Part shown: positions 4,083 to 34,312 of the stretch, in pieces
Position numbering within the stretch: the stretch's first letter is position 1
Layout: each line of letters begins with the position of its first letter
Assembly (NCBI GenBank): GCA_964603585.1
Contig: CAZRVK010000002.1
Span: 28,282 to 92,281 of the forward strand
Origin: an uncultured Planctomycetales bacterium
Lineage (GTDB): Bacteria > Omnitrophota > Gorgyraeia > Gygaellales > Profunditerraquicolaceae
Length of the DNA: 64,000 nucleotides
Reading direction: 5' to 3'
Program-made: the position numbers and the translations under genes
The notes under the pieces: model-generated
Told to the model about the DNA's origin: nothing
What the model saw: only the letters and a program-made list of their open reading frames with translations
The model's database searches: none

Positions 4083-4086
4083 CGGT

Positions 4087-8745: not shown

Positions 8746-8749
8746 TTTC

Positions 8750-10180: not shown

Positions 10181-10208
10181 AACTGCCTTCTTTTTTATGA
10201 GCTTAAAG

Positions 10209-10964: not shown

Positions 10965-11089
10965 CTCTTATCCCTTCATTATCTTAAAAACTGTGTTTTA
11001 ATATCCTACCTATCGAACATTCTTCATAAAAAATCAGATCCCTGCCTTTAAGATTGCCCCGGATCCATACCTAAAATACAACATAAACT

Positions 11090-14402: not shown

Positions 14403-14412
14403 CTATTGCCCC

Positions 14413-15768: not shown

Positions 15769-15813
15769 TTGTATTCGCTCCTCTCAATGAAATATAAACT
15801 GCTCAATCGAATA

Positions 15814-17502: not shown

Positions 17503-17541
17503 TTTATGTGCGCAATAAATCCCTTCTTTAAAAAGTATCCC

Positions 17542-18954
17542 TTATGCAACCTCTGGCTTAAAAATGGTCCGAGAAAAGTAAACTTTAATCACCCGCAATA
17601 ATTTCGGCAGGTGCTTTAACTTTATATGTTTAATGATCTTAAATAACCTTTTTGGATTGTATATGTATGAACTTATAAATGCCCTGACAAAGATCCTGCG
17701 CAAGGCATCCTTTTTGACCATGCAGGTATCGAAAGGATTAGTAAAAACAAAACTCTCCCAAAGGATATCATTAATTTCACCATGCAAATACAATCTCTGG
17801 AACAATTCTGAACCCGGATAAGGAACGGCGAAAGAAAATACAACATAATCCAGCGGGGATCTTCTTGCGAACTCAACGGTTAATTCCAAAGTCTGCCGGG
17901 TATCATTTGGCAATCCGAGGATAAAGAAACCGAATGTTTCAAACCCATGCCTTTTTACCATCTCGATCTTTTTTAAAACCGTCGAGGCAGATAACGGTTT
18001 TTGATTTTTCTCTAAAACTTCACTGGAAACCGATTCTATGCCAAACCCCAATTGATAACATCCTGCCTGCTTCATAACGCTTAGCAACTCATCATCCAAA
18101 GAATCCAAACGCACGCCAACAGGGGTTTTCCAGGTAATATCCAGCCCCCTTTTTATTATCTCTGTGCATATAGCTATTGCATGTCCGCGGACTTCTGTAA
18201 AATTGTCATCAATTATATTTATCTCCTTAATACCAAAATCCTTGATCAGGCACTCAATTTCATTGACCACCGCATCCGCACTGCGCAACCGTATCTTCCG
18301 GCCATGAACTGCTTGAGAACAGCAAAAACTACAGTTATGCGGACATCCTCTTGAAGTAATGACCGGTGCGGCTGGATGGCGCAAACCAAAAATATGTCCC
18401 GGGGTATCGATATAAGAAGCAGGATCGATTAATTGCCATGCGGGAGTTTCTAAAGAGTCGAGGTCCTTAATTATATTTATTCCCTCCGTCCTGATTATTT
18501 CGTTATTTTTCTTAAAAACTACTCCCGGATAACCGCTAAGGTCATTTTCTTTTAAATTATAACCATAAGATTTGACCATATCGACAAAGACTTCTTCCGC
18601 TTCCCCAATAATGCCGATATCGGCTCCTAAATCCGCCAAAGCAAACTCCGGCAAGGCGGAAATATGCGGGCCTCCAATGACGATATTGACATCGGGCTTA
18701 AGATCCTTGAGCTGCGCAATTATTCCTTTTATCTTCCCATATGAAGGGGTAAAAACGCTTAAACCGACTATAACCGGCTCTTCTGCAAGAATCTTTAAAG
18801 CCGCATCCATAGGGGTACCTTTATAGACAGACAAATTCAATATTCCTGAATCTATCCCGTTCTTTATCAAAGCAGACGCGATATAGGATATGCCTAAATA
18901 GGGCGTGTGCGAGACTGTATTTGCAGGAGGGATAACCAGGAGTATCTTATGCAT
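17542..18954 (-). CDS. B12-binding (class B) radical SAM enzyme.
   Basis: ILLVIPPAN...IVIGGPH...IIGEAE. TSRGCPHNCSFC. Confidence 0.85.
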   Translation of the reverse strand: MHKILLVIPPANTVSHTPYLGISYIASALIKNGIDSGILNLSVYKGTPMDAALKILAEEPVIVGLSVFTPSYGKIKGIIAQLKDLKPDVNIVIGGPHISALPEFALADLGADIGIIGEAEEVFVDMVKSYGYNLKENDLSGYPGVVFKKNNEIIRTEGINIIKDLDSLETPAWQLIDPASYIDTPGHIFGLRHPAAPVITSRGCPHNCSFCCSQAVHGRKIRLRSADAVVNEIECLIKDFGIKEINIIDDNFTEVRGHAIAICTEIIKRGLDITWKTPVGVRLDSLDDELLSVMKQAGCYQLGFGIESVSSEVLEKNQKPLSASTVLKKIEMVKRHGFETFGFFILGLPNDTRQTLELTVEFARRSPLDYVVFSFAVPYPGSELFQRLYLHGEINDILWESFVFTNPFDTCMVKKDALRRIFVRAFISSYIYNPKRLFKIIKHIKLKHLPKLLRVIKVYFSRTIFKPEVA

Positions 18955-18969
18955 TTTCTATGGTTTTTC

Positions 18970-20391
18970 TTAAATATCGGCGGCCACAAATCTCATAAAA
19001 ACGATGAGATTGCGCAACATAGACCGCAAGCTGCTTAACTTTAAAAAAAGCGGCAAATACCGTATAAGGGCCCGGGGACGTAAATAAAATTCCCTATAGG
19101 CTTTCTTCCGTAACCTTAGAAGATCGCTCTTTGACAAAGCTTCGGTTTCAAATACCGGATCTCCATGCCATGAATATTTACTCCAATCCAAACTCCTTAA
19201 ATAACCCTTTTTCTTAAAATAGCTGAAAGATTTTGTCCCCGGCAAAGGCGATAAATATAAATATGTTGCATAAGTCGGGTTGATTCTCTTGGAAAACTTA
19301 ATGGTGTCTTCTACCGTAGCAACCGAATCCCCTTCACAGCCAATGATAAAAGTCGCCCAAGAATTTATACCAACCTTATTTATCAACTCAAACGCTTTAC
19401 AAATGGTGGCTGTATCGATATTCTTATTGCACTTTTTTAGGACTTCATCATTGCCGCTTTCAACCCCAACCTGGATCTCGACACACCCGGACTGCTTCAT
19501 CTCGCGCAATAATTCAAGCGACATATTATCGGCCCGGCCATGGCAAATCCATTTTAGCCCCGGGAAATATTTGCGTATCCCTTGACAGAACCGGACCACC
19601 CTTTCACAAGAACCAGTAAAATCATCATCATGCAAGAATAATAATGCCGCGTTATACCGTTTAATCAGATGTTCCATCTCCTTAAAAACGTTTTCCAGGC
19701 TTCTATACCGGGTCAGGCCATTCCAAATCAGGGAACTTGAACAAAAATCGCATTTATAGTTACAACCCCGAGAAGTAATAATAGAGTGGTAATAGGGGTT
19801 TTTTACCGGATATGGATAGATATGCCGGTAGGTATTTCTCGGCAACAGCTGGCGTGCGGGAAAATCCAATACATCCAGATCAACTATCAAACTGCGTTTT
19901 TTAGTAAGAAAATCACTGCCATTTTGTCTATAAGCGATACCCATAACCCGGCTGAAATCACGGTCTAAATCCTGACAAAATATGATATCTTTAAAAGTCT
20001 CTTCTCCTTCACCTACCACACAAATATCTGCAACATCAAGGTTTTCAAACGGCAAAGCAGAAACATGCGGCCCGCCAAAAACAATAAGCGTATCAGGAAG
20101 CGATTCCCGGATAGCTTGAGCCGTTTTTCTTGCGGATCCGGCCGTAATCGTAGAAAGAGTGATCCCGACTATCTCTGGGGCAAACTTAATTACCCGACCT
20201 AATACCTGTTGATGAGACATATTCAATCCGGCAGCATCACAAATATCAACTGCCGATCCCGGGAAGTTCTTTATTATTGATGAAGCCAAATAAGCCACAC
20301 CCAAAGGCTCGCTCTTATAGTTGACGGCGCCTTTTAGCAGGCCGGGGAAATAACTGTAATTGGGATTGATCAGCTGGATCCTTTTTGGCAT
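18970..20391 (-). CDS. B12-binding (class B) radical SAM enzyme.
   Basis: IQLINPNYS...IVFGGPH...VVGEGE. TSRGCNYKCDFC. Confidence 0.85.
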   Translation of the reverse strand: MPKRIQLINPNYSYFPGLLKGAVNYKSEPLGVAYLASSIIKNFPGSAVDICDAAGLNMSHQQVLGRVIKFAPEIVGITLSTITAGSARKTAQAIRESLPDTLIVFGGPHVSALPFENLDVADICVVGEGEETFKDIIFCQDLDRDFSRVMGIAYRQNGSDFLTKKRSLIVDLDVLDFPARQLLPRNTYRHIYPYPVKNPYYHSIITSRGCNYKCDFCSSSLIWNGLTRYRSLENVFKEMEHLIKRYNAALLFLHDDDFTGSCERVVRFCQGIRKYFPGLKWICHGRADNMSLELLREMKQSGCVEIQVGVESGNDEVLKKCNKNIDTATICKAFELINKVGINSWATFIIGCEGDSVATVEDTIKFSKRINPTYATYLYLSPLPGTKSFSYFKKKGYLRSLDWSKYSWHGDPVFETEALSKSDLLRLRKKAYREFYLRPRALIRYLPLFLKLSSLRSMLRNLIVFMRFVAADI

Positions 20392-21047
20392 TTTATAAAT
20401 ACATATCCTGTAAAGCCCTGGTTGAATTCATGCTTTTGAACAAGTTCAAAGCCGTGATTCTTAAATGATCCCCAGAATTCACTACGGCAATATTGGATCT
20501 TTTTTATGATCTCCTCAAGAAAAACCACTGTTTTCAAAATGATACTGCCCTGCTTGGATCCCGGGTCCAATTCAATAACAACGAACAACCCCTTATCCTT
20601 AAGCAGTAAAGCCGCCTCGGATAACAAAAACAGCCTCTTTTTTTCGGGCATATGGTGAAAAACATTGATAGCAAGGATAGCGTCAAAGGAATCCGGCTTA
20701 AAACATAAATTGTGGTTTCCACTTACGCAACAAAATCCGCTGGTCTTACTTTTTGCGAATTTTAAAGGAATAATATCCTTATCCACTCCGACATAGCGCA
20801 CACGAGAATCCCCCTTAAATGCATCATATGCAAAACCTTCTCCACAGCCAAAATCCAAGACCCGTACTTCTTCCTGACCATACCATTGTATGGACTGTTT
20901 TAAAAAAACCTTTTCTGCGCGGATATCGCGCGTTAAGAATTGCAGCCCATAATGTATTGCCGTAAACGGATAAAAAATTGAACAACCCAACAATCTAAGA
21001 TTATTACATCCTGCAACAATATCTTTGGGGCATGAATTTTGAGACAT
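20370..21047 (-). CDS. Class I SAM-dependent methyltransferase.
   Basis: Motif I VLDFGCGEGF. Post-I acidic residue (VGVDKD). LAINVFHHMPE (motif IV-like). Confidence 0.75.
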   Translation of the reverse strand: MSQNSCPKDIVAGCNNLRLLGCSIFYPFTAIHYGLQFLTRDIRAEKVFLKQSIQWYGQEEVRVLDFGCGEGFAYDAFKGDSRVRYVGVDKDIIPLKFAKSKTSGFCCVSGNHNLCFKPDSFDAILAINVFHHMPEKKRLFLLSEAALLLKDKGLFVVIELDPGSKQGSIILKTVVFLEEIIKKIQYCRSEFWGSFKNHGFELVQKHEFNQGFTGYVFIKCQKGSS

Positions 21048-21086
21048 AAGATTTAGTGCCTAAGCGATCTTTACGGATATTCCGGA

Positions 21087-22631
21087 CTATGGATATATCC
21101 TCTCAAGATATTGCAGCACTCTTTCATTATTGACAGTTCCAACGCATTTTTGAAGTATGATCCAGCTATCTTTAAAATCCAGTGTGGTATATCCGGAATT
21201 ATTCATGAGGCCCTTTAACCTGGGGATAAATTCCGCACGGCTGACCGGATAAAAATCATCCCGGGAAAGATCCAGGAAAATATACTCCCAGGAAACATCA
21301 TCCTTTATCAGCCAATTAGACAGATCACCAAGGGATCCGCACTGGGACAAATGTGGAGCTAATGATTGCATGGTTAAACAAGCGGCCCCGGGAGGGATTT
21401 TCTTCAACATCTCCTTACCTATCGAAACATGCTGTGTCTCGACTAATGACCCCAGACTAAAGTCGCGATTAAAGGGGATCTCAAGGTCCCCGCCGGCAAA
21501 AGTGCTTTTCGGCAGGCATAGATAATGCAAGAAACAAACCTTGACCAACACTATAACCGCAAACAGGTTTGCCAATAATGCATACCGCACTTCCGCAGTA
21601 ACCGCGTTTCTTCTTGGGATGATACCTGTAAGAAAATCCAGGAATTTCTTGATCCCGAACAAACCAGCATAAATTGTAAACGCAAGCAGCATGAAATGCC
21701 CGGTCGAATGATGGTTCCTTAAGAGCAAAAACAGGGTTTCCGGGATCAAAGGGATAAGCCGGAGTGGAGACAAAAAGGCAAAAATAAACGGAAACCCGAA
21801 GAAAACAGATGGCAGCATATTAAACGGATTAAAAATATTCCTTAACACTGCCAAAGGATCCGCTTTAATACTATTCAGCACTAAAAGAAAATTGTCGTTA
21901 TACTGCCCCAAATGCAATAACCCGAAAGGAAAATCCTTTTTTGCTATCGACAGATACAATAGGACCAAAACTGCAATAATTATCAGCCAAGATGCACAGA
22001 TGAAAAATGCCACCCTGGCGAATTTCTTTTGGCCTCTAAGAAAATACAGTACCAGGCTAAACAAAAGGTTAATCACAACAACGTCTATCTTTGCCGCATT
22101 CGATAGAACAAGAAAAATAGAAAACCAGAATATACTCCCCTTTTCCAGGGATAAAAACATCCCCAGAAGAAATAATAACCCTATCGCCAGAGGCATGTAC
22201 CCCAATAAAGAACCCGTTGTGACAACCGGATGCAAAAGATACGCTACCGATAGCGCAAATGAGAGAATACGACTCTTGACGATCCCTCTGGAAAGTAAAT
22301 AAACAAAAACCGCTCCTATAGACATAAAAGAACTTTGAAACCAAAGCAAAGCCTGCGGCTTTAAGATCAAACCGTAAATATGGGCAAAAATAAAATTGAT
22401 CGGGGTAAGGATGAAAAAAATAAACGCGTATTCCGGAAGGATAAACAACTCGAACGGACTCCGCCCATAGGCTATCTTTGGATAGATATGTATGAATTGC
22501 CAGCCGAAGGTTGTAGATGAAAAAATGTTAAACTTAGCCGCATTGATAAAACCAAAGGCGGAAGCGTAAAGAATCGATAGCAATATTACACCTATCAATC
22601 CAGCATCTATCTTATGGTTATCAGACATCAC
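21087..22631 (-). CDS. Polytopic integral membrane protein of unknown family, with a C-terminal soluble domain.
   Basis: About 10-12 hydrophobic helices. The C-terminal roughly 150 aa is hydrophilic. No family motif recognised. Confidence 0.45.
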   Translation of the reverse strand: MMSDNHKIDAGLIGVILLSILYASAFGFINAAKFNIFSSTTFGWQFIHIYPKIAYGRSPFELFILPEYAFIFFILTPINFIFAHIYGLILKPQALLWFQSSFMSIGAVFVYLLSRGIVKSRILSFALSVAYLLHPVVTTGSLLGYMPLAIGLLFLLGMFLSLEKGSIFWFSIFLVLSNAAKIDVVVINLLFSLVLYFLRGQKKFARVAFFICASWLIIIAVLVLLYLSIAKKDFPFGLLHLGQYNDNFLLVLNSIKADPLAVLRNIFNPFNMLPSVFFGFPFIFAFLSPLRLIPLIPETLFLLLRNHHSTGHFMLLAFTIYAGLFGIKKFLDFLTGIIPRRNAVTAEVRYALLANLFAVIVLVKVCFLHYLCLPKSTFAGGDLEIPFNRDFSLGSLVETQHVSIGKEMLKKIPPGAACLTMQSLAPHLSQCGSLGDLSNWLIKDDVSWEYIFLDLSRDDFYPVSRAEFIPRLKGLMNNSGYTTLDFKDSWIILQKCVGTVNNERVLQYLERIYP

Positions 22632-22638
22632 TACCTGG

Positions 22639-24123
22639 CTAATTAGCAGCAGTTGCTTTTAAAAGCTTTTTCGCTAACTCCACGGGCTTATTCAACAGGT
22701 ATTCAATATACATGGCAACCAAAATATACCCTCCGTAAAAAAGCTTCCCTATGCTGGTCTTTTTCCCAAATACATACTGGAAGATTATCTTTGGCCGGAC
22801 ATAAAAGTCAAACATGGCTTTTCTTTGCAGCCCCATAAGCTCCCTGCTTGTCATCCCGGGAGGGACATAAACAAGTTCCTTGGAATCATCTGCCCAATCA
22901 TACCAGCCGGTGAATTTCTCCGGGTCTACGATCTCGCCTTTATTCCTGTAAAATTCATCGAAAAATTTAGATCCGGGATAAGGTATCGCCAGATTAAATT
23001 TGGCGATATCACAATCCAGTTCCTTTGCAAGCCTGATGGTATTAAGGCATCCTTTTCTCGTCTCTCCGGGTAGGCCAAGCATGAACAATCCTAATGTATA
23101 TATTTTCAGCTCCTTTACCACTCTCATGACCTCTCGCGCCTGATTAACCGTGGTACGCTTATTCACCGAATCAAGCATATTCTGGTCTCCAGTCTCAAAC
23201 CCGAACATAATAAGGTGTACGCCGGCCTCTTTCATACGCCGGAGGACCTCTTCATTAACTAAATCCACCCGGGTCTCGGTTATCCATTTAATGCGTTTAT
23301 GCAACCCTCTTTTTATCAATTTGTCACAAAATTCTATTCCTGACTCTACTGAAAAAGGGAAATTCGCATCCATAAAACCAAATTTCTTTACGCCATATTT
23401 AGAATACATGAATTCGATCTCATCCAGGATCTTATCCAAGTTCCTATACCTGGGCGTCGGGTAAACTTTATCCTGGGCACAAAACATACACTTAAAAGGG
23501 CATCCCCGAGAACCCAAAAGAGGCAAAGCGCGTTCTCCGTATATTATCGCCAAAGGGACTTCATTGTAATTGTCCAGATCAAAAAGATGCCAGGCAGGAT
23601 ACGGCAGGGTATCCAGATCTTCAACGGGCTTCCTGTCCGGGTTAGTTACGACTTTGCCGTTTTTTAGAAAACTTACCCCGTCGATACCATCAAACCCCCT
23701 GCCTTCTTTTAAGGCATTGACTAACTCAAGCATGGTAATTTCGCCTTCGCCGCGAACTACCACATCAGCAATCTTTTCCTCTAAAAGCTCTTTTGCAAAA
23801 ATCGTTGGATGCATCCCCCCCAAAACAATCTTTGCCTTGCTGAATCGGCGTATCTCGGGGATAAGCATCCTCACCTTCTTCATTACAGGCGTCAAACAGG
23901 AGATCCCGATGATATCCGCATCATATTCCTTGATCTGCGCTAACAATTTATCATCGCTCATCCGGGTAGCGAATTGGTCCATTACCCTGACCTGGATCCC
24001 CGCATTTTCCAATACCGCGGCGATAGTACCTATCCCGGTAGGAAGGATCGGGGCAAAAAAAACACGCAACTTAACGCTCTTCTCAACTGATCCGGTGTTG
24101 GGGTTAATCAACAGCACTTTCAT
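22639..24123 (-). CDS. B12-binding (class B) radical SAM enzyme.
   Basis: VLLINPN...IVLGGMHPT...VVRGEGE. GSRGCPFKCMFC. Confidence 0.85.
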   Translation of the reverse strand: MKVLLINPNTGSVEKSVKLRVFFAPILPTGIGTIAAVLENAGIQVRVMDQFATRMSDDKLLAQIKEYDADIIGISCLTPVMKKVRMLIPEIRRFSKAKIVLGGMHPTIFAKELLEEKIADVVVRGEGEITMLELVNALKEGRGFDGIDGVSFLKNGKVVTNPDRKPVEDLDTLPYPAWHLFDLDNYNEVPLAIIYGERALPLLGSRGCPFKCMFCAQDKVYPTPRYRNLDKILDEIEFMYSKYGVKKFGFMDANFPFSVESGIEFCDKLIKRGLHKRIKWITETRVDLVNEEVLRRMKEAGVHLIMFGFETGDQNMLDSVNKRTTVNQAREVMRVVKELKIYTLGLFMLGLPGETRKGCLNTIRLAKELDCDIAKFNLAIPYPGSKFFDEFYRNKGEIVDPEKFTGWYDWADDSKELVYVPPGMTSRELMGLQRKAMFDFYVRPKIIFQYVFGKKTSIGKLFYGGYILVAMYIEYLLNKPVELAKKLLKATAAN

Positions 24124-24142
24124 AAGGTCAGCCTTTCTTTTA

Positions 24143-25321
24143 TTAATACTTGAATATCTCTCCGCTGTTAATCTCGTTTATAAAGAATTCGTATTCAGCG
24201 ATCAATTTCCGCCTGACATTTTCGTCGATATTTATCGCTTTAGCGGCTATTTTTCGGCAATAGCCACATTCATCACAAGACTTATCCCGGCATTGCTCTT
24301 CAATAAAATAATTAATGAATCCATCTAACTTTCTGTTATCTATATTTATATGGATATCCCTGACTAGCTTACTCATTTCGATAAGCTTGAAAATATTGAT
24401 CTTTAATGGATGAAAGAAATACTTGAGTTTATGGATGAAGTTCGGGTTTTTCACCCAAAGGCTTTTTGATGGATTGGCAAACAAATCATAAAGATTACCT
24501 TCGTAACTTCTGGAGGAATATGCTTCTGTTATTAAACTTAATGCATCTGAATGCATCGTTCTATCAACTATCTTGAATCTGTCTATACCTATTCCCTCGT
24601 AAACCTTTAAATCCTCCGGCCTAATCCATGCCGTACGTATTAAATTGGCAGGGTCTTTAAGCATCGCATATCTGCACATAATACGGCAATAATCAAAAAG
24701 ATACTCCCCTGGCCGGGTTATATCTTGAGACCCGTGCGAACTGGTATTATTATGGTAAAAATACCTTGGGCAATGCTGCAGACAATCCTCGTTTACAATA
24801 AGCTGAAGCCCGCATTCTACTCCTTTTCTTATCTTCGCAAGAAGTTTAAAATCACGGTTGACTTCACCCAATGACAGTGTAATAACAGACGCGCCCAAAT
24901 CCTGCCAGAATTTTGCCTTGGCTACCGAATTTACATTCGCAAAACAGGAAACCGAAAGTTCAAACTGCGGGTATTTCAATTTGATCAACTGAAAAAGGTA
25001 AGGGCTGGTCACCACCAGTCCATCCACTCTTACTTCTAAAAGCCAATCAAGCAGCTTATGGAGCTTTTTTTGGCCTTTTATGCTCCATTCTCTGTTTCCC
25101 AAACAGGAGGCATTTAAAAGATAGAAGAACTTCCATCCTTGCTTTTGGATCTGCCCGATGTGCGCTTTGGCATAATTCCTGGATACCCCGCGGATAACAC
25201 AAGTTGCTCTTCCTCCTCCAACAAAATCCTTATCCAGTTTACCGTATACCGTGTCCACGGACGGTTTTTTTATCTTAAGGACTAAATCTTCCTGCCAATT
25301 TGTAGGTACAGTTAGTTTCAT
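24143..25321 (-). CDS. U32-family protein (peptidase U32 / UbiV-RlhA-like; putative Fe-S O2-independent hydroxylase), copy 1.
   Basis: N-terminus MKLTVPTNWQ...FVGGGRA parallels the UbiV N-terminus MKYSLGPVLWYW. The central segment aligns by eye to the UbiV TIM-barrel region. Cys-rich stretches CLQHCPRYF, CRIMC and CDECGYC. Tandem paralogue of 25338-26531. Confidence 0.55.
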   Translation of the reverse strand: MKLTVPTNWQEDLVLKIKKPSVDTVYGKLDKDFVGGGRATCVIRGVSRNYAKAHIGQIQKQGWKFFYLLNASCLGNREWSIKGQKKLHKLLDWLLEVRVDGLVVTSPYLFQLIKLKYPQFELSVSCFANVNSVAKAKFWQDLGASVITLSLGEVNRDFKLLAKIRKGVECGLQLIVNEDCLQHCPRYFYHNNTSSHGSQDITRPGEYLFDYCRIMCRYAMLKDPANLIRTAWIRPEDLKVYEGIGIDRFKIVDRTMHSDALSLITEAYSSRSYEGNLYDLFANPSKSLWVKNPNFIHKLKYFFHPLKINIFKLIEMSKLVRDIHINIDNRKLDGFINYFIEEQCRDKSCDECGYCRKIAAKAINIDENVRRKLIAEYEFFINEINSGEIFKY

Positions 25322-25337
25322 TTGTTTTTAATAATTA

Positions 25338-26531
25338 TTACTTTCTCCCACGGACGTAAAATGCTCTTCCCGAAACAATATCATCCAAAAGGCGGACCGA
25401 CAAATCCAATTTCTGCCGATAGGCATCTTCTTTCGGCAGGCGTAACGCCGAAGCAGCAACATCCTTGCAATAAGAACAACCGTCGCAATCATGCCTACAC
25501 TTACCGGAAACAAAAAAATCGAGAAATCCCTCAAGCTTTTGATTGTCCAGAAAAAAACCGTTACAATCAAGCAACTTTTGCAGTTTCTGCATCTTAAAAA
25601 TATCCGCTTTAAAAGGATGGAAGAAATATTTCAATTTATGAAACAGATAGGGTTTGGCGAATAATAAACATTTATTCTTATCCAATGTAAATAGATCAAG
25701 CAGGTTCCCTTCATATTTATTTTCGGTGTATGCTTGAACGATACTAAGGATAAATTCGGTTTTCATGATCCTATCTACGAGTTTTATACGATCTATGCCT
25801 ATCTCCTCATAATAATGAAGATCCTCCGGGCGGATCCAGCCGGAAGAAATCAACCGGTAAGGCTCCTGGAGCCGCACATGCCTGCAGGAAAGAGAGCAGT
25901 AATCAATGACAAACCCGCCGTTAGGATCATTTACTTGAGAGGCATGGCTGGTTAATCCAGCATGGTATAAATGGTATGGGCAGCCATAAAGGCATGGCAG
26001 GTTTGCAATAAGCTGCAGCCGGCAAGAAACCGCCTTCCTGATCTTACGCAAAACTTCGAAGTCACGGTTGATTTCTGTAAAAGAAAGTGTTATCTGGTCC
26101 GCACCCATATCCTGCCAATATCTTGCGCTTATAGGGTTATTTACAGCGGCCATTACAGAGACATGAACCTTTAAGGAGGGGTAACATTTCTTCACAACCT
26201 GCAAAAGATACGGTAAAGACACTGTTACGGATTCAACACCTAAAACCAACAACCAATCAAGCAATTTTTGGATGTTTTTCTGGCCTCGATGATTCCATTC
26301 CCGGTTGCCAAGACAGGATGAATTAAGCAGATAATTAAAAGCAATACCTTTTTTATGTATTGAACGAATATGCTCTGCCGCCTTCTTTCTTTGTATGACA
26401 GGGCCAAGGGCAGAAGCCCTTCCCCCCCCAAAAAAATCGGCGTGTAGTTTGCCATAGATCTGATCTATGTTCCGAACATCGAGATTTTCCAACAAATCGG
26501 TCTGCCAATTAGTAGGCACGGATAACTTCAT
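25338..26531 (-). CDS. U32-family protein (UbiV/RlhA-like), copy 2.
   Basis: MKLSVPTNWQTDLL...FFGGGRA. CLYGCPYHLYH, CSLSC and CDGCSYC. C-terminal FFHPFKADIFKM versus FFHPLKINIFKL in copy 1. Confidence 0.55.
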   Translation of the reverse strand: MKLSVPTNWQTDLLENLDVRNIDQIYGKLHADFFGGGRASALGPVIQRKKAAEHIRSIHKKGIAFNYLLNSSCLGNREWNHRGQKNIQKLLDWLLVLGVESVTVSLPYLLQVVKKCYPSLKVHVSVMAAVNNPISARYWQDMGADQITLSFTEINRDFEVLRKIRKAVSCRLQLIANLPCLYGCPYHLYHAGLTSHASQVNDPNGGFVIDYCSLSCRHVRLQEPYRLISSGWIRPEDLHYYEEIGIDRIKLVDRIMKTEFILSIVQAYTENKYEGNLLDLFTLDKNKCLLFAKPYLFHKLKYFFHPFKADIFKMQKLQKLLDCNGFFLDNQKLEGFLDFFVSGKCRHDCDGCSYCKDVAASALRLPKEDAYRQKLDLSVRLLDDIVSGRAFYVRGRK

Positions 26532-26635
26532 ATTCCCCTTTATCTTTATCGTTTATGGATAAAAATCACGTCAACATTATACCATAAAACACCTTTTGCG
26601 ATATTTAATTGTGCCCGGCTTAAAACGAAGCGGTA

Positions 26636-28081
26636 TTAATAAAGTGTCAGGTTGCGCAGGCCGAATTTAATACATTCAAAATATGTTAATCGATTGGCCT
26701 TTTTATAACGATACGCGAAAGTAACGGCAAAAACCATATGGTATAATAAATCCAGAGGTAATCGGATAAGCAGTTTCACCAGCGCCAATAATGCCGGGAA
26801 TCTTACTGCCAGATAAAAAAGTTTCTGCAGCCTTATTATTTTATCTATATCTTTATAGGAAAAATTGCTGCGCCTAAAGAATGTAGGTGAAAAACAGCCT
26901 TTATCTGTGGGATGCAAAAAGCCATTCTTAATGGAGACCTCTTCGATCTTTGTGCCCGGATAGGGCTGTAATATTGAACACCAGGGATAATCCGGTTTAA
27001 TACGGATATTGATTGCGACGGTTTTAAGCGCCCCAGACAAGGTCTCCCCGGGCAATCCAAGCATATTATTCGTCAAGATCTTGATACCGTGCCGATGCAA
27101 ACACTCTGCGGCATATAAGATTTGCTGGTCGGTAATATTCTTATTGAGAAGATTTATCCGGGAGTTTTCATCTCCCGTTTCAACCCCCATTGAAACACGG
27201 AAACAACCGCCAGTTTTGAGCATTCTTGACACATCTTCATCAACTAATGAAGCATGGACATTACAGATAAAGGGGATCCTGATGTGCTTATTGTACTCGA
27301 AAAGAAAACCCTCAAGCCATGCCTTATCATATATAAAAATATCATCATCAAAAACCACAGTTCTTAAAGGGTACCTGGTTTTTACCTGTTTTATCTCCTT
27401 GATTATATGCCCGGGGCTTCTGAATCTAAGCGGATTCCTCTCACCCTTATAAAGATCCTTTAAAACATGGTTATAACAATAATTGCAATTGAACAAACAT
27501 CCGCGAGAAGCCATAAAATGCTTTACGCCCTGCCTTTGGAAATCTTTATACTTATCATAAATAGACCGGTCTGGAATAGGCAAATGATCCAGGCAGGGGA
27601 TCAAAGGGCCCATATCATTTCGTATTATTTTATCCGATAACTTAACATAAAGACTTTTTATATGTGGATTTACCTTGCCGGCATTTAAAGAATCTGCGAG
27701 TTCAATGAGAGGGGTTTCGCCTTCCCCCCGGCAAACAGCATCAATGCCCGGCAAATCAATGATATCTGGAGCGAATGTGGGGTGGCTGCCACCAAACAAC
27801 ACAAAAACATTAGCCAGCGCTTTCAACTCTTTAGCGGTCTTGAGTGCCCAAAGATGCTCGCCAGATGAACAAGAGAAACCAACCAACCCGGGTTTCATCT
27901 GGACTATCTTCCGCAAAATATGATTTTCGGCCACACCAATAAAAACATCTACCTCATAACCCCTTGCCTTTAAAACTGCCGAAAGGGACATAACCCCGAT
28001 GTTCTCAAACCATGATCTTTGCACTAAAGCTATTCTCATTTTACAGGCAGCTAACCTCGTTATACAATAAATCCCTGTCAT
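26636..28081 (-). CDS. B12-binding (class B) radical SAM enzyme.
   Basis: IALVQRS...VLFGGSH...VCRGEGE. ASRGCLFNCNYC. Confidence 0.85.
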   Translation of the reverse strand: MTGIYCITRLAACKMRIALVQRSWFENIGVMSLSAVLKARGYEVDVFIGVAENHILRKIVQMKPGLVGFSCSSGEHLWALKTAKELKALANVFVLFGGSHPTFAPDIIDLPGIDAVCRGEGETPLIELADSLNAGKVNPHIKSLYVKLSDKIIRNDMGPLIPCLDHLPIPDRSIYDKYKDFQRQGVKHFMASRGCLFNCNYCYNHVLKDLYKGERNPLRFRSPGHIIKEIKQVKTRYPLRTVVFDDDIFIYDKAWLEGFLFEYNKHIRIPFICNVHASLVDEDVSRMLKTGGCFRVSMGVETGDENSRINLLNKNITDQQILYAAECLHRHGIKILTNNMLGLPGETLSGALKTVAINIRIKPDYPWCSILQPYPGTKIEEVSIKNGFLHPTDKGCFSPTFFRRSNFSYKDIDKIIRLQKLFYLAVRFPALLALVKLLIRLPLDLLYHMVFAVTFAYRYKKANRLTYFECIKFGLRNLTLY

Positions 28082-28161
28082 TAAAACATCTTTATTATAT
28101 AATAGTATCTAACCGCTTAAAAGTTAATCTTTCGGTTTGATCCATTGAGAATATCATTAAA

Positions 28162-29622
28162 ATGATCGACATCCTTTTAGTTCAACAATCCGCCGGCAGC
28201 TGGGAACGTCCAATCAAAAATCACATTTTGCCGCTCTCGCTTATCTCTGCGACAAGGCAAATCCCTAAGGATTTTAACATTAAACTGATAGATGTCAGGA
28301 TCCATGGCAAAAAAGCGCTCTTGCCCTATATCCGACAAAAGAATATCCTGATCGGCTTATCTGTTCTGACCGGACAATCGATCAAAAATGCTCTGGGAAT
28401 AATCCGATTTATAAAAGAGATCAACCCTTCCGCCCAAATAATCTTAGGGGGGATTCATCCAACTATTCAGCCGGAACAAACCTTAGCTTCTCCACTGGTT
28501 GATTACATCGTTACCGGACCTGGAGAAACTGCTTTAAAAGAGTTTTTAATACACAGGAGCGGGCCAAGGATAAGCAATCCGGACAACATCGAAGGCCTTG
28601 GATATAAAGACAGCGGTAAATTATTCATTAACCAGCCGTCGAAGTTGACTCCAGAAAAAATCGATTCCTTCGGTCTTCCCTCGTACGATCTCGTAGATAT
28701 CAAGCAATACCTGATTGATTATGACGGAAAACCAAGCATCCAAATAGAAAGCTCGCGCGGCTGTAATCAAAGATGTGCATTTTGTGTAAATTCCGCGCTA
28801 CGGCAAAATTGGGTTCCGTATTCCGCTGATTTCGTAATTAAGCACATTGAACACCTTTACTATACTTATGGCGTTAAAAGCTTCATTTTTATCGATTGGG
28901 ATTTCTTCACCGATTTAGAAAGGGCAAGACAAATTTGCCTGCAATTGATACAAAAGAAAATCGGGATCTCCTGGGTCTCTCAAGGGATTCATGTTAACGA
29001 ATTACTAAAGATCGATGATAAATTCATGAGATTACTTAAAGAAAGCGGATTTGTCGAATTCTGCGCTATAGGAGTCGAAAGCGGTTCAAAAAGGATCTTA
29101 AAAACAATGAATAAGGGGTATAATATGGAGGAACTTATTTCATTAAATAAGAACCTTTCCCGTTACAGAATTGCCCTAAAATACACCTTCATCATAGGTA
29201 CACCTTACGAACAATACAAAGATCTCCAGGAAACTATATCTTTAGCCCTGAAACTAAATTCAGATAATCCTTATGCGGCCAACTCCAGCTTCTATATTTA
29301 CACCCCCTATCCCGGGACAAAATTCTTTGATCAAGCGGTTAATTTGGGGTTTAACCCACCCTCAACACTGGAAGAATGGGGAGATGTCAGGGGCTGGATA
29401 ACTTCGTGGCAGCGCAACCGAGGGCCAAGGAGCAAGCTCGAAAAGATCCATTTTCTATCGTTGTTCACCACAGCAGTCTATTGGCAAAAATATCTTAAAC
29501 GTTTCAAACTGCTCAAGCCCGTTTTTCTTATATATAGTAAAATCGCCGTATTTAGATTAAAAAAAGGGTTTTTTCCCTTCATGCCGGAGTTCTTAATCTG
29601 GAAACAGCTAAGAAGGAATTAA
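28162..29622 (+). CDS. B12-binding (class B) radical SAM enzyme. Tandem paralogue 1 on the plus strand.
   Basis: ILLVQQSAGSWERP...IILGGIHPT...IVTGPGE. SSRGCNQRCAFC. Highly similar to the next ORF. Confidence 0.85.
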   Translation: MIDILLVQQSAGSWERPIKNHILPLSLISATRQIPKDFNIKLIDVRIHGKKALLPYIRQKNILIGLSVLTGQSIKNALGIIRFIKEINPSAQIILGGIHPTIQPEQTLASPLVDYIVTGPGETALKEFLIHRSGPRISNPDNIEGLGYKDSGKLFINQPSKLTPEKIDSFGLPSYDLVDIKQYLIDYDGKPSIQIESSRGCNQRCAFCVNSALRQNWVPYSADFVIKHIEHLYYTYGVKSFIFIDWDFFTDLERARQICLQLIQKKIGISWVSQGIHVNELLKIDDKFMRLLKESGFVEFCAIGVESGSKRILKTMNKGYNMEELISLNKNLSRYRIALKYTFIIGTPYEQYKDLQETISLALKLNSDNPYAANSSFYIYTPYPGTKFFDQAVNLGFNPPSTLEEWGDVRGWITSWQRNRGPRSKLEKIHFLSLFTTAVYWQKYLKRFKLLKPVFLIYSKIAVFRLKKGFFPFMPEFLIWKQLRRN

Positions 29623-29682
29623 CCACTTTGCCGTACGCGTTTATAGCACTTTTGCAGCTAAATCTAAAATCATTTTAAAATC

Positions 29683-31143
29683 ATGCTTAGCGCCTTATTG
29701 GTTCAACAGTCTTCCGGCAGCTGGGAAAAAGCCGTGTCTTCACCCACATTGCCTTTATCTTTGATTTCTGCCGCAAGACAAATCCCTAAAGAATACAAAA
29801 TCAAATTATTCGACGCCAGGATAGAAGATGAAAAAGATATCCTTGTGCATCTTAAACAGCCCGGGCTTCTTCTTGCCTTCTCGGTCCTTACCGGAGCCTC
29901 GATCAAAAATATGCTTTCGTTTGTTAAAAAAGCAAAAGCCATTAACCATAGCCTGAAAATACTTTTAGGCGGCATACATCCATCGATATTACCGGAACAG
30001 ACACTCGCTTGCCCTTTGGTGGATTATATCATTACCGGCCCGGGAGAATTACCATTAAAAGAATTGATCATCCAACGGAGTAAAAATACCGGCTTCAACC
30101 CGCGGGGGATCCCCGGTCTCGGGTTCAAAGAAGAAAACCGGATAATAATCAACCCCAAAAAACATCCAGATGCAAAAGAGATCAACAGCTGGGATCTTCC
30201 AAATTACAAGTTAGTAGAAATCAGAAAATACCTGTTCGATTACAACGGCAAACCTACTATCTATATCGAAAGTTCACGCGGCTGTAACCACACCTGTTCA
30301 TTCTGTTCAAATGTGCCTCTGCATAACAGATGGGTACCCTATCTTCCTGAACGGGTAGTAGCACATATACGCTATCTCTATGAAAATTACGGCATAAAAA
30401 GTTTTTTATTCATTGATTTGGATTTCTTCACTGATCTGGAGCGCGCCAGGCGGATTTGCGAGCTTATCATCAAAGAAAAACTCGGTATTTCCTGGCATAC
30501 CCAGGGAGTACGCGTCGCCGAACTGATGCAGATGAAAGAAGATTTTATCAATCTTTTAAAAGAAAGCGGATTCAGGGAATTCGAGGCGATCGGCGTAGAA
30601 AGCGGGTCTCAACACCTGATCAATCTGATAAAAAAAGGATTTAATGTTGCAGATCTGCCAAAACTCAATGCGTCTTTTATGAATTTCGCTATCCCTATGC
30701 GGTATAATTTTATGATCGGCTTCCCTAATGAAACATACGAAGACACAAAGCAAACCATAGACATGGCACTAACCTTGAACAGGCAAAATCCCCACGCCTC
30801 AAATTCGATGTTTTATATTTACACCCCTTACCCCGGGACAGAATTCTATCGCCAGGCAATTGAATTGGGATTTAAAGCCCCTGACAATCTCCAGGAGTGG
30901 GGAAATATCCAGGGATGGATAACTTCTCCGATACATGGGAGAAAAATACAGGATAGATTGGAAAGGATACATTTCTTGTCGATTTTCACCACAATGACAT
31001 ATTGGAGCAAATTCTTCAGGCGCTATCATATATTGTGGTTATTCTTTGCTGTCTATAGATATATCGCCCTCTTCAGGCTTAATAAGAAATTCTTCCGCTT
31101 AATGCCTGAATTCCTGATCTGGAAATTCATCCGAATGCGTTAA
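29683..31143 (+). CDS. B12-binding (class B) radical SAM enzyme. Tandem paralogue 2 on the plus strand.
   Basis: ALLVQQSSGSWEKA...ILLGGIHPS...IITGPGE. SSRGCNHTCSFC. Collinear similarity with 28162-29622 over the full length (for example YIYTPYPGT, ERIHFLS, MPEFLIWK). Confidence 0.85.
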   Translation: MLSALLVQQSSGSWEKAVSSPTLPLSLISAARQIPKEYKIKLFDARIEDEKDILVHLKQPGLLLAFSVLTGASIKNMLSFVKKAKAINHSLKILLGGIHPSILPEQTLACPLVDYIITGPGELPLKELIIQRSKNTGFNPRGIPGLGFKEENRIIINPKKHPDAKEINSWDLPNYKLVEIRKYLFDYNGKPTIYIESSRGCNHTCSFCSNVPLHNRWVPYLPERVVAHIRYLYENYGIKSFLFIDLDFFTDLERARRICELIIKEKLGISWHTQGVRVAELMQMKEDFINLLKESGFREFEAIGVESGSQHLINLIKKGFNVADLPKLNASFMNFAIPMRYNFMIGFPNETYEDTKQTIDMALTLNRQNPHASNSMFYIYTPYPGTEFYRQAIELGFKAPDNLQEWGNIQGWITSPIHGRKIQDRLERIHFLSIFTTMTYWSKFFRRYHILWLFFAVYRYIALFRLNKKFFRLMPEFLIWKFIRMR

Positions 31144-32708
31144 AAATCATCTTGCCTTATACGCACGATCCCGGCATAACTTGAAATATAAAAATACCCG
31201 TTATCCGCACAGATCGCTTCGGGAGACTGTCCGATATAATACGATCTTTCCAACTTACGGGAAGCCCTTGATAAGATATAACAATACCCGTCATTATAAC
31301 TGAAGAACACGACCTTTTGGTTATTCAAGGCATAAACCTGTCTCGCTCCAATAGGGGCCGCATAGGTATTAATTATCCCTAAATCGGGCAGCGAGAGTTC
31401 CCAAAGCCTTGTATCGCTTACTGCCGATATCAAAAGGCTGTTATGAAAGCCATCGTAGGCAAAAGAAGCTCCCTGTGATGGAAGACGGACTTTTTTAGTG
31501 ATCATAAACCGCTGCGGATCCAGTTCAAAAAGCGAGTCTTTTGCAGGAAACAGCAAAAAATAAAGCTTGCCGGTAGCGGGGATATATTGCGCCTTCCAGA
31601 TATCCCCGACATTTCCGGAAGATTCACTTTTTAAATCGATAATGCCAAGGATATTATCATTTGAAATGCTGTATTTAACTATTTTTTTTGAACGATTAAA
31701 GAAAAAAATCAGGATGTCATTCCCGTCGAAATAGAAGGTTATTAATTCTTCCTCATTCTTAAATAACCGGTTAAATTCAATTGCAAATAACTGTTTGAGG
31801 CTGTCTTTATCCACAACCTGGATCTTGGCCGGAAGCCATATCCCAATGAATATCCGGCTATTTTGATTATCGATCCTAAATGCCCTCACCCCCGATACAG
31901 GAATTGCTTTGATCTCTCGCGTCAGCAAATCTACCCTTAAAAAAGAAGGTGGATTAGTGATTTGCTGGATATCGGAAGCATACGAAACATAGGCAGAATT
32001 TCCCGAAACAACCAGATCTCGCGGCCTGGGCCAGAATCCGAATAATTTCCACCCCCACCCCTGTTTTATAAGATCATTTTCCCTTGCCCAATCTTTTATC
32101 TGGGTTAAAGGAAAAACTACTTCTACCTCTTTCTGCGCGTAAATCTTCTTGAGAGAAAACTCATTTTCTCCCGCCGCATAATAGCCAAAAACAACCAAAA
32201 CGGCAATAGATAGCGGCAGTAAAACCGTGATCGTAAAGCGCAAGATCTTTTTTCTCACCACAAAAAACGAATAAAACAAAATGTACAAACATATCATTGA
32301 TAAGGATAGCTTATAATGCACCCAAAAAAATGGTTTAAGGTATGCCGATAGGGTACTCAAGGCATATTCTGCCCCCTGGATCAACCCTGAATATTTGGGG
32401 AATAAAATGGTTGCTTCCTCACTGCGCGGGATATTTATGACAAGAAAAAAAAGAAAGACTAATATTACCGCTTTAACTAAGACTTGCAAATAGAATTTAA
32501 GGACTCCGGATTGCTTTTTGTCATAGTATTTGCTCATCAGGAATTCAAAGCAGATAAGAAGCGCTGGGAAAATGATTATTTGCAATAATGACAGCCTTGT
32601 CCTGCTGGAATATTCAAGGATAAGAAAAAGGCAGGATATGACCAAGACTCCGATAAAGAAAGGGAAAAAGATCCTGGCTGCCTGGCAGCAAAAACGGCAT
32701 AATTTCAT
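31140..32708 (-). CDS. Membrane-anchored protein. About 5 N-terminal TM helices plus a C-terminal, probably beta-rich (propeller-like), domain. Unknown function.
   Basis: N-terminal hydrophobic segments. The C-terminal roughly 330 aa is hydrophilic with repeated aromatic/Gly segments. No family motif recognised. Confidence 0.4.
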   Translation of the reverse strand: MKLCRFCCQAARIFFPFFIGVLVISCLFLILEYSSRTRLSLLQIIIFPALLICFEFLMSKYYDKKQSGVLKFYLQVLVKAVILVFLFFLVINIPRSEEATILFPKYSGLIQGAEYALSTLSAYLKPFFWVHYKLSLSMICLYILFYSFFVVRKKILRFTITVLLPLSIAVLVVFGYYAAGENEFSLKKIYAQKEVEVVFPLTQIKDWARENDLIKQGWGWKLFGFWPRPRDLVVSGNSAYVSYASDIQQITNPPSFLRVDLLTREIKAIPVSGVRAFRIDNQNSRIFIGIWLPAKIQVVDKDSLKQLFAIEFNRLFKNEEELITFYFDGNDILIFFFNRSKKIVKYSISNDNILGIIDLKSESSGNVGDIWKAQYIPATGKLYFLLFPAKDSLFELDPQRFMITKKVRLPSQGASFAYDGFHNSLLISAVSDTRLWELSLPDLGIINTYAAPIGARQVYALNNQKVVFFSYNDGYCYILSRASRKLERSYYIGQSPEAICADNGYFYISSYAGIVRIRQDDF

Positions 32709-32736
32709 CTTGCGGGTTAATCGCAGTGTAAGCGCA

Positions 32737-34305: not shown

Positions 34306-34312
34306 TTTATCC

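Follow-up and report, generated by a model that had tools for sequence, protein, structure and literature searches.

A tandem pair of U32-family proteins from an undescribed branch, set in a B12-radical-SAM gene cluster of Omnitrophota

To our knowledge, U32 proteins are the only enzymes thought to hydroxylate with an organic oxygen donor, prephenate. We know of only three characterized systems, which act on ubiquinone precursors or RNA bases; the substrates known to us are all aromatic or heteroaromatic, and for most family members no function has been assigned. In E. coli, UbiU and UbiV (YhbU/YhbV) serve in the O2-independent ring hydroxylation of ubiquinone and form a heterodimer, each subunit of which holds a [4Fe-4S] cluster through four essential cysteines (PMC6747719). 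Prephenate is the oxygen donor for this pair, and no report describes an in vitro hydroxylase assay for any characterized U32 protein (PMC10990095). TrhP (YegQ) and RlhA (YdcP) carry out prephenate-dependent RNA hydroxylation; in RlhA, C169 and C176 are essential and additional C-terminal cysteines are also required (PMC5727448).

We analyzed a 64,000-nucleotide stretch of contig CAZRVK010000002.1 (the window), from a bacterium of the Omnitrophota. An earlier note on this DNA had described two adjacent U32 paralogues inside a radical SAM cluster, and the two genes, here A and B, lie precisely where it had placed them. Their coordinates, and those of the cysteine motifs discussed below, are as follows.

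24143..25321, minus strand: U32-subfamily paralogue A, 392 residues (open reading frame)
25338..26531, minus strand: U32-subfamily paralogue B, 397 residues (open reading frame with a PF01136 match)
24674..24784, minus strand: core cysteine motif of A, C180-x3-C184-x27-C212-x3-C216, probable [4Fe-4S] site (alignment to the TrhP and UbiU cysteines)
25884..25994, minus strand: core cysteine motif of B, C180-x3-C184-x27-C212-x3-C216 (same columns as in A)
24257..24292, minus strand: C-terminal motif of A, C344-x4-C349-x2-C352-x2-C355, probable second metal site (subfamily-specific conservation)
25467..25499, minus strand: C-terminal motif of B, C345-x3-C349-x2-C352-x2-C355 (comparison with A and family alignment)

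The co-directional genes are separated by 16 nt and encode full-length paralogues with 47% identity (E 3e-132). Both proteins begin MKL[TS]VPTNWQ, followed by F[VF]GGGRA, a start that is not signal peptide-like. The segment C180-H190 reads CLQHCPRYFYH in A and CLYGCPYHLYH in B, C212-C216 reads CRIMC and CSLSC, and C349-C355 reads CDECGYC and CDGCSYC, respectively. All motifs quoted in the earlier note were thus found in both proteins; its FFHP[LF]K..IFK, however, is not the terminus but an internal motif at residues 302-313 of about 395, within an insertion exclusive to the A/B clade. B has all of the residues that are invariant in a 53-sequence family alignment, and A likewise keeps them; the polar ones are D32, N70, E78, R156, N177, H190, H196, R234, D237 and K250.

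A search with PF01136 returned significant matches for both A (42.8 bits) and B (43.5 bits), above the gathering score of 22.4. The matches are confined to profile positions 2-67 of 233 (residues 86-150 in B), while other subfamily members match up to profile positions 3-231. Both fold into the (beta/alpha)8 barrel of the U32 type seen in 5D88, and no other Pfam family matched at E <= 1, neither Peptidase_U32_C nor DUF3656. Profile-profile alignment of the A/B subfamily with hhalign gave probabilities of 96% for TrhP (E 1.5e-9 over 234 columns), 90% for RlhA (E 1.9e-6 over 205 columns), 73% for UbiU and 1.4% for UbiV. The by-eye alignment to the UbiV barrel proposed earlier was therefore not reproduced. 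The TrhP and RlhA alignments stop at about residues 270-287 of A/B-type proteins, and a 'SHASQ'-like segment in the subfamily recalls 'SHAQT' of RlhA. Equivalog models for UbiV, UbiU and TrhP (NCBIfam NF047963, NF011996) scored 17-29 bits against cutoffs of 440-534: TrhP gave 28.5 and 28.6 bits (cutoff 534), UbiU gave 16.7 bits (cutoff 440) and UbiV gave no match. The classical U32 signature, E-x-F-x2-G-[SA]-[LIVM]-C-x4-G-x-C-x-[LIVM]-S, which we take to be PROSITE PS01276, was found by regular expression in E. coli UbiU, RlhA and TrhP but is missing from UbiV, A and B; A and B have CX3C where the signature has CX6C. With scores so far below the cutoffs, the signature missing and the PF01136 match partial, A and B are not specifically UbiV/RlhA-like. 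They are paralogous members of a distinct, previously undescribed branch of the U32 Fe-S 'oxidase' family.

Mapping of the Fe-S cysteines, as the earlier note had advised, showed that all four cysteines of TrhP (CX6CX15CX3C) have counterparts in both A and B, at C180, C184, C212 and C216, while UbiU C169 and C176 align with C180 and C184. Cysteine is found at C180, C184 and C216 in 89-90 of 90 diverse members, whereas C212, the third canonical ligand, is a cysteine in only 60 of them (67%). Judged by alignment and conservation, the four residues form a probable [4Fe-4S]-type site. C73 is a cysteine in 86 of the 90 members and may substitute as a ligand where C212 is lost. The CX3CX27CX3C spacing of A and B is atypical for U32 oxidases, compared with CX6CX16CX38C or CXnCX12CX3C in UbiU/UbiV. 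The C-terminal Cys4 is present in 53/53 close members and in 83-87 of the 90 diverse ones. It lies outside the region alignable to TrhP, RlhA and UbiU, without a Pfam match, and probably forms a second cluster or metal site in a subfamily-specific helical domain. MK0906 (PDB 5D88), a U32 'peptidase' domain from Methanopyrus, has only 247 residues, lacks this C-terminal domain and offers no cysteine opposite C180 or C184 in a phmmer alignment. A and B share the family and the TIM-barrel core with UbiU/UbiV but add the C-terminal Cys4 domain and have neither UbiT nor a fixed heterodimeric pairing. TrhP and RlhA give the best remote alignments, yet differ in having the classical signature, Peptidase_U32_C or DUF3656 and an RNA-related context.

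The two genes are flanked on both sides by B12-radical-SAM genes, in the following neighborhood.

26636..28081, minus strand: B12-binding radical SAM gene, next gene upstream of B at a distance of 104 nt (PF02310, PF04055)
22639..24123, minus strand: B12-binding radical SAM gene, next gene downstream of A at a distance of 19 nt (PF02310, PF04055)
21087..22631, minus strand: DUF2079 polytopic membrane protein, the next co-directional gene (PF09852, 77.6 bits)
20370..21047, minus strand: small SAM-dependent methyltransferase (Methyltransf_11, Pfam match)
2592..35536, no strand assigned: enclosing cluster with 11 B12-radical-SAM genes, GT-C/PMT_2-like membrane proteins, DUF2079, the methyltransferase and GT9 (Pfam scans)

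Gaps of 16, 19 and 7 nt join B, A, the radical SAM gene and the DUF2079 gene. Within the window, tblastn counted 11 B12-radical-SAM, two U32, three GT-C and one DUF2079 genes. The radical SAM protein upstream of B is generic HpnJ/BchE-like and below all NCBIfam equivalog cutoffs; that downstream of A has BchE as its best NCBIfam match (245 bits, cutoff 481). At these scores, neither was assigned to a known function. Orthologues of the downstream radical SAM gene flank A-type U32 genes in loci L004 and L010, where DUF2079 also adjoins the U32 genes. None of the other fetched loci yielded a homologue of the window methyltransferase at E 1e-5, so the hydroxylate-then-methylate scheme suggested for it earlier has no conserved counterpart in other radical SAM loci. 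Pfam scans of the window revealed no aromatic-ring-forming, chorismate or prephenate gene, and the other radical SAM loci showed none either. A promoter and terminator scan of 19-30 kb found sites no more numerous than in shuffled sequence. CrtB-like, IspH and CrtI genes adjoin the cluster; they do not recur in related loci, and a carotenoid link was treated as coincidental. An analogy to hopanoid side-chain synthesis (HpnJ-like radical SAM, GT2, deacetylase, class III aminotransferase) was dropped for want of a cyclase and of matches at equivalog level in the window.

Next, we considered the subfamily as a whole, which comprises about 900-1,800 cluster representatives and at least 565 genomic loci in many phyla. 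In the literature we found no description of it, nor of U32 with Omnitrophota or radical SAM, of DUF2079 with B12-radical-SAM, or of type III PKS with U32. The subfamily is a large, phylogenetically broad part of the U32 family, set apart by its cysteine architecture and found in three distinct genomic contexts. These contexts, counted over 80 loci and 97 subfamily genes, are mutually exclusive: a B12-radical-SAM/glycan type, a YceI/type III PKS/U32/UbiE-methyltransferase type and a type with chorismate-binding and chorismate mutase genes. The B12-radical-SAM context accounts for 46 loci, and 49/97 subfamily genes directly adjoin a B12-radical-SAM gene (gaps of -40 to +35 nt), while 26/97 adjoin another subfamily copy. 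At least two copies occur in 25 of the 46 loci; in all 34 loci outside this context the gene is single-copy, so that copy number rises only in radical SAM loci.

Type III PKS and/or UbiE-methyltransferase neighbors, often with YceI, occur in 18/80 loci (PKS in 14 of the 18, methyltransferase in 17). L091 and L093 hold a tightly packed four-gene YceI/type III PKS/U32/UbiE-methyltransferase operon, which lacks chorismate genes. Here the likeness to UbiU/UbiV is contextual: a UbiE-type methyltransferase and a lipid-binding YceI (compare UbiT) would act on a lipid-tailed phenol. SrsC is presumably a further flavin-dependent ring hydroxylase of phenolic-lipid operons, beside the HidB-type FAD oxidoreductases. 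Aerobic counterpart operons combine a methyltransferase, an FAD oxidoreductase and a type III PKS, and in alkylresorcinol/hierridin-type clusters the HidB-type enzyme has the same position relative to PKS and methyltransferase as U32 (PMC10896814). By analogy, the U32 protein would mirror the usual flavin ring hydroxylase, whose place it appears to take. The two enzyme types share neither fold nor cofactor (FAD and O2 in one, Fe-S in the other); the analogy is one of gene displacement, not homology, and covers a distant subfamily clade rather than the window's context. From the compact operon one would expect an alkylresorcinol-type phenolic lipid to be hydroxylated anaerobically.

In L087-L089 the U32 gene is fused or adjacent to GATase, chorismate-binding and CM_2 chorismate-mutase genes; L090 has a U32 gene with GATase, and L048 has chorismate-type matches. 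In L088 and L089 it follows GATase and a fused chorismate-binding and CM_2 gene, with a TPP decarboxylase, an aldehyde dehydrogenase and aminotransferases nearby. P0242 is a covalent chorismate-mutase-U32 fusion, which ties the family physically to prephenate-type chemistry; no further covalent fusion was found in the subfamily, though adjacency recurs. Another member, P0156, is fused to a SAM methyltransferase. The PKS and chorismate contexts speak for an O2-independent hydroxylase chemistry of the prephenate type in the subfamily, and they could give the field its in vitro assay. Because these clades share only about 30-40% identity with A and B and never co-occur with B12-radical-SAM genes, function in the window's clade may differ.

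We propose that A and B most likely catalyze an O2-independent two-electron oxidation or hydroxylation with a prephenate-type co-substrate, like UbiU/UbiV, TrhP and RlhA, with their Fe-S centers carrying electrons away; Fe-S binding, prephenate use and hydroxylation are here what we infer from family and context. Their place of action would be the long run of B12-radical-SAM and membrane glycosyltransferase-like genes, an operon whose probable role under anoxia is the tailoring of a membrane-associated glycoconjugate or lipid. There, each would be a tailoring enzyme with its own site or substrate, not one half of an obligate heterodimer of the UbiU/UbiV kind. We lean towards this explanation as a whole with moderate confidence. 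It is weakened by the lack of an aromatic-ring-forming or chorismate/prephenate gene in the window, by the incomplete conservation of C212, by the missing classical signature and by the short PF01136 match. The earlier idea of an O2-independent hydroxylase thus gains indirect support at the subfamily level, from the type III PKS operons, the chorismate-mutase fusions and the methyltransferase fusion, whereas its specific UbiV likeness, heterodimer and methyltransferase link fell away. With the U32 pair in it, this unusually large B12-radical-SAM cluster becomes a candidate for the oxygen-independent production of heavily tailored envelope molecules. It is conceivable, if rather unlikely, that the branch with the second Cys4 site is a general anaerobic C-H/C-X functionalization module that extends beyond aromatics, oxidizing lipid or sugar carbons beside radical methylation in the B12-radical-SAM clusters and performing 4-amino-4-deoxyprephenate-based O2-independent amination in the chorismate-linked clade. 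Either non-aromatic carbon oxidation or such amination would be new chemistry for the U32 family.

The arrangement of A and B, adjacent and co-directional with all invariant residues kept by both, is also what would be expected of an obligate heterodimeric hydroxylase with one Fe-S cluster set per subunit, like UbiU-UbiV (PMC6747719), as the earlier note had envisaged, or like B. subtilis YrrN-YrrO. The frequency of neighboring and multiple copies in radical SAM loci points the same way. However, a neighbor-joining tree of 90 members has no stable two-clade pairing, and partner combinations vary between loci: the A-type partner is B-type here, but in L004, L010 and L012 it is a degenerate copy of about 350 residues that lacks C73 and the C-terminal Cys4. 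A-type genes come in triplets in L009, and many loci interleave U32-rSAM-U32-rSAM rather than pairing U32-U32. UbiU and UbiV are strongly differentiated, whereas A and B are closely similar with identical cysteine patterns, and the single-copy state of all 34 loci outside the radical SAM context means that the fold works without a paralogous partner. We regard an obligate heterodimer as unlikely, while giving it some weight. The close association of about half of the subfamily genes with a B12-radical-SAM gene, the copy number that rises only in such loci and an extra Cys4 motif that could be an electron-transfer cluster would fit non-hydroxylase Fe-S redox or accessory partners, serving the neighboring enzymes in electron transfer or substrate presentation. 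We consider this improbable: the subfamily occurs without radical SAM genes in the 18 type III PKS/UbiE-type loci and in the chorismate-type loci, and the many invariant polar residues of the TIM barrel look like those of an active site rather than a ferredoxin. Moreover, upstream pairs show a co-divergence of rho 0.36 against a same-locus control of 0.20 +/- 0.09, and downstream pairs -0.02, while three different radical SAM orthogroups adjoin A-type genes. As co-divergence does not exceed the same-locus background and the neighboring orthogroup varies, a fixed U32:radical SAM partnership was rejected.

In L088 and L089 the genes are arranged as in a p-aminophenylalanine-like route in which U32 takes the dehydrogenase position. 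By this pathway analogy, and with the covalent fusion in P0242, a further reading arises: a prephenate-type molecule would be the substrate (decarboxylative aromatization or oxidation, in the position of PapC/prephenate dehydrogenase) and not the oxygen donor, and A and B would produce or alter an aromatic building block. As the type III PKS operons supply their own aromatic ring and no chorismate-binding or CM_2 gene lies near A and B or in the other radical SAM loci, we find this quite improbable. The database names 'U32 family peptidase' and 'collagenase-like PrtC' would make A and B peptidases or collagenases, a reading to which we give next to no credence. The source annotations are what favors this in the window, and for two U32 proteins a collagenase role was reported in the past (PMC5727448); the N-terminus, the conserved Fe-S-type cysteines and the biosynthetic operon context speak against it, as do the U32 proteins whose mechanism has been studied, all of which suggest redox enzymes (PMC6747719, PMC11574389). 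RNA hydroxylation of the TrhP/RlhA type, forming ho5U or ho5C, would agree with the best profile alignments and the 'SHASQ'-like segment, but is highly improbable given the low TrhP equivalog score, the missing U32_C and DUF3656 domains and neighborhoods that, in all three contexts, are biosynthetic and not translation-related.

A and B together span exactly 24143-26531, are separated by 16 nt and are paralogous over their full length (47% identity, E 3e-132). They form part of a long minus-strand run, read in transcription order as a B12-binding radical SAM gene (B12-rSAM), B, A, a B12-rSAM, DUF2079, a small methyltransferase, two more B12-rSAMs and onward, with intergenic gaps of 16, 19 and 7 nt from B through DUF2079.

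Features of the A/B region.
2592-35536 (~2.6-35.5 kb): enclosing cluster with 11 B12-rSAM genes, DUF2079, GT9 and several GT-C/PMT_2-like membrane proteins
22639-24123, minus: B12-rSAM, just after A in transcription order
24143-25321, minus: A, ORF of 392 aa
25338-26531, minus: B, ORF of 397 aa
26636-28081, minus: B12-rSAM, just before B in transcription order

The 11 B12-rSAM paralogues make an exceptionally dense array, interleaved with the GT-C/PMT_2-like proteins, DUF2079 and GT9. They are generic BchE/HpnJ-like proteins, and none reaches or comes near any NCBIfam equivalog cutoff. The remaining genes of the window are housekeeping genes of a diderm cell (among them SecA, RF2, MurJ, LptE, a BamD-like protein, lipid A acyltransferase and Lnt).

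Both proteins match Pfam Peptidase_U32 (PF01136; A 42.8 and B 43.5 bits, gathering score 22.4) over profile positions 2-67 of 233 only, and reach 17-29 bits against the NCBIfam equivalogs for TrhP and UbiU, which have cutoffs of 440-534. An AlphaFold2 model built from a 53-sequence alignment (pLDDT 91, pTM 0.91) matched MK0906 (5D88) best by a wide margin (Foldseek E 8e-13), to our knowledge the sole U32 domain with a solved structure. Profile-profile alignment to the E. coli proteins (NC_000913.3) gave probabilities of 96% for TrhP (E 1.5e-9, 234 columns), 90% for RlhA and 73% for UbiU. The UbiV likeness that the earlier note saw by eye was not reproduced (1.4%). The classical U32 signature (PROSITE pattern) is matched by UbiU, RlhA and TrhP and is missing from UbiV, A and B. 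Thus, the profile, structure and alignment matches, with the missing signature, identify A and B as genuine but divergent U32 proteins. All sequence motifs quoted in the earlier note occur in A/B; FFHP[LF]K..IFK, however, lies at residues 302-313 and not at the C-terminus, within an insertion exclusive to their clade.

The [4Fe-4S] cluster is bound by C169, C176, C193 and C232 in UbiU and by C39, C180, C193 and C197 in UbiV, and a CX6CX15CX3/4C motif is common to most U32 groups (Pelosi et al., PMC6747719). The four motif cysteines of TrhP align to C180, C184, C212 and C216 of A, and UbiU C169 and C176 to C180 and C184, so the U32 core motif is kept in A with its spacing changed to CX3CX27CX3C.

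Cysteines of the subfamily (numbering of A; core counts over 90 diverse members).
C73: Cys in 86/90
C170: Cys in 79/90
C180: Cys in 89/90
C184: Cys in 90/90
C212: Cys in 60/90, else Tyr, Ser or His
C216: Cys in 90/90
Second motif, Cx4Cx2Cx2C: C344-C355 in A, C345-C355 in B

Since C73 is retained in every otherwise intact member without C212, it could serve there as an alternative fourth ligand, a role comparable to that of the remote C39 in UbiV. The second motif (Cys in 53/53 close and 83-87/90 diverse members) sits in a helical C-terminal domain without a Pfam match or a counterpart in TrhP, RlhA or UbiU. Additional C-terminal cysteines have a precedent in RlhA, where they are essential (PMC5727448). 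With both the PF01136 match and the Fe-S cysteines found, the proposal of a U32 pair stands, and we consider membership of the family and possession of its Fe-S site highly probable.

A word-indexed protein search returned ~160 relatives, the minority with names being nearly all Omnitrophica/Omnitrophota proteins annotated 'U32 family peptidase' or 'collagenase-like PrtC'. In an exhaustive profile search, 876 representatives of 50%-identity clusters passed E ≤ 1e-30 and 1,833 passed E ≤ 1e-10; a scan of species-representative genomes gave at least 565 loci, in groups including Omnitrophota, Planctomycetota, Elusimicrobiota, Desulfobacterota, Binatota, Deferrimicrobia, Acidobacteriota, Nitrospinia, Armatimonadota and Actinomycetes. 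Our literature search found no paper describing these proteins. A and B are Fe-S-type U32 enzymes whose subfamily is new and widespread and is marked by the respacing of the core motif and by an additional Cys4 domain.

Our comparison of genomic contexts drew on 84 loci, whose 1,030 called ORFs were clustered, with a six-frame search as a check on key families. Among the 80 non-redundant loci, the contexts do not overlap.

Contexts of subfamily genes.
B12-rSAM genes (mean 3 per locus): 46 loci
Type III PKS and/or UbiE-type methyltransferase: 18 loci
Both: 0 loci
Neither: 16 loci

B12-rSAM genes directly adjoin 49/97 subfamily genes and another subfamily copy adjoins 26/97, at distances that mostly run from -40 to +35 nt. 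The rSAM loci also repeatedly carry rSAM-SPASM proteins, GT-C and GT2 glycosyltransferases, DegT and class III aminotransferases, an epimerase-like protein and a polysaccharide deacetylase, a repertoire typical of envelope-glycan or glycolipid clusters. In four loci (L014, L021, L022 and L060) a canonical full-length U32 gene (PF01136 96 bits, profile positions 5-223 of 233) accompanies the subfamily gene, directly upstream in L014 and L021; the gene after it encodes a 272-aa protein that lacks a Pfam hit and is UbiV-like by eye. Thus, some rSAM-type loci combine a classical U32 gene, perhaps with a partner, and the divergent subfamily. At L004/L005:14402-17421 and in L010, genes for a multi-ferredoxin-domain protein, an HGD-D subunit (2-hydroxyacyl-CoA dehydratase/benzoyl-CoA reductase-like) and a BcrAD_BadFG activator ATPase adjoin the U32/rSAM genes and represent a further radical or redox system, likewise strictly anaerobic, in this type of cluster.

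Outside the rSAM context, single-copy subfamily genes occur in operons of YceI, type III PKS, U32 and UbiE/COQ5 methyltransferase genes in Desulfuromonadales, Deferrimicrobia, Binatia, Planctomycetota and 'Deltaproteobacteria' MAGs. The operon is compact, is found in anaerobe-type MAGs and in some cases also encodes an MMPL exporter together with a small lipoprotein. A clade of ~360-aa proteins is chorismate-linked.

Loci of the two contexts.
YceI/type III PKS/U32/UbiE operon: L091:5187-9018; L093:5220-8964; L064:5156-12000; and 15 further loci (L043-L085)
Chorismate-linked clade: L087:2586-5953; L088:5721-9116; L089:5059-8368; L090:8001-9741; L048

Independent gene calls confirm the operon layout, showing 4-bp overlaps at both U32 junctions in L091, and genes abutting or ~20 bp apart in L093. 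Hierridins, the methylated, hydroxylated alkylresorcinols of aerobic planctomycetes and cyanobacteria, are products of methyltransferase/FAD-oxidoreductase/type III PKS operons, some of which also encode a lipoprotein and a protein that binds lipids (PMC10896814). The U32 protein takes the place of the O2-dependent flavoprotein in the anaerobe operons, which look like O2-independent counterparts of the hierridin/alkylresorcinol operons. In the chorismate-linked clade, P0242 is a 924-aa fusion of Anth_synt_I_N, Chorismate_bind, CM_2 (chorismate mutase fold) and a subfamily U32 domain, its gene preceded by a GATase gene with a 4-bp overlap. GATase and chorismate-binding plus CM_2 genes lie immediately upstream of stand-alone relatives in L088 and L089, beside TPP-decarboxylase, aldehyde dehydrogenase and aminotransferase genes; a GATase gene is also retained in L090, and matching hits occur in L048. 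Chemistry of the 4-amino-4-deoxyprephenate type is suggested by this arrangement, in which U32 stands in the position expected of a PapC-like dehydrogenase. UbiU/V-dependent hydroxylation has been shown to draw its oxygen from prephenate, which genetic evidence also shows RlhA and TrhP to need (PMC10990095, PMC5727448). A further fusion, P0156 (628 aa), joins the U32 domain to a C-terminal SAM methyltransferase. Other fusions also occur (P0129, P0189, P0206, P0231, P0120 and P0150, ~475-575 aa), several with a weak DUF2621-like ~90-aa tail that exceeds the Pfam cutoff in two.

The phenolic-lipid operons, chorismate-linked loci and methyltransferase fusion together single out an O2-independent hydroxylase or oxidase of the prephenate type as the best-supported putative role for the subfamily, and these contexts offer a clean experimental route to U32 mechanism. 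They favour the O2-independent hydroxylation suggested for A and B at the subfamily level, but the clades concerned are only ~30-40% identical to A/B and none co-occurs with B12-rSAM. U32 substrates known to us are all aromatic or heteroaromatic; the A/B cluster has no obvious maker of such a ring, and no chorismate, prephenate or aromatic-ring-forming gene was seen in the window. A and B are probably O2-independent oxidases or hydroxylases; we lean slightly towards a hydroxylase mechanism in this cluster and place low confidence in any specific substrate. The small methyltransferase has no homologue in the other loci, so a hydroxylate-then-methylate logic through it is not conserved; methylation by the B12-rSAMs themselves is plausible, and hydroxylation followed by glycosylation would be compatible with the GT-C-rich context.

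The pair had also been likened to the UbiU-UbiV heterodimer. Multiple copies are confined to the rSAM context (25/46 loci), all 34 loci outside it are single-copy, and the neighbour-joining tree lacks two stably paired lineages. A's clade is paired with a B-type copy in the window and with a degenerate ~350-aa copy in L004, L010 and L012; in L009 it sits in a U32-rSAM-U32-rSAM-U32-rSAM array.

Degenerate copies.
L004:7441-8493
L010:7461-8516
L012:11238-12278

These copies keep only C180, C184 and C216, with C73 and the entire C-terminal Cys4 missing; each is paired with an intact A-type copy and may be a partner without catalytic activity. Three different rSAM orthogroups adjoin A-type genes. 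A physical A:B complex is possible, although A and B are probably not an obligate UbiU/V-like heterodimer; membership of a shuffling toolkit of tailoring enzymes is the simplest reading. A mirror-tree analysis for fixed U32:rSAM partners was negative (upstream rho 0.36, same-locus control 0.20 ± 0.09; downstream rho -0.02).

Directly beside the rSAM cluster, at 35676-38820, lie a squalene/phytoene synthase-family gene, IspH (LytB) and a CrtI-family phytoene desaturase (410 bits, subfamily cutoff 238). Such carotenoid-type genes are absent among the neighbours that recur in the related loci, which makes a chance juxtaposition probable. At 53083-54075, a 330-aa release-factor ORF (PCRF and RF-1 domains) begins at PCRF profile position 12, a start that the programmed frameshift common in prfB, with a short ORF upstream, could explain. 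Finally, a ThiF-family E1-like gene, a 156-aa ORF without a Pfam hit and a Prok-E2_E gene stand in a row at 61142-62879 and form a bacterial ubiquitin-like conjugation module.
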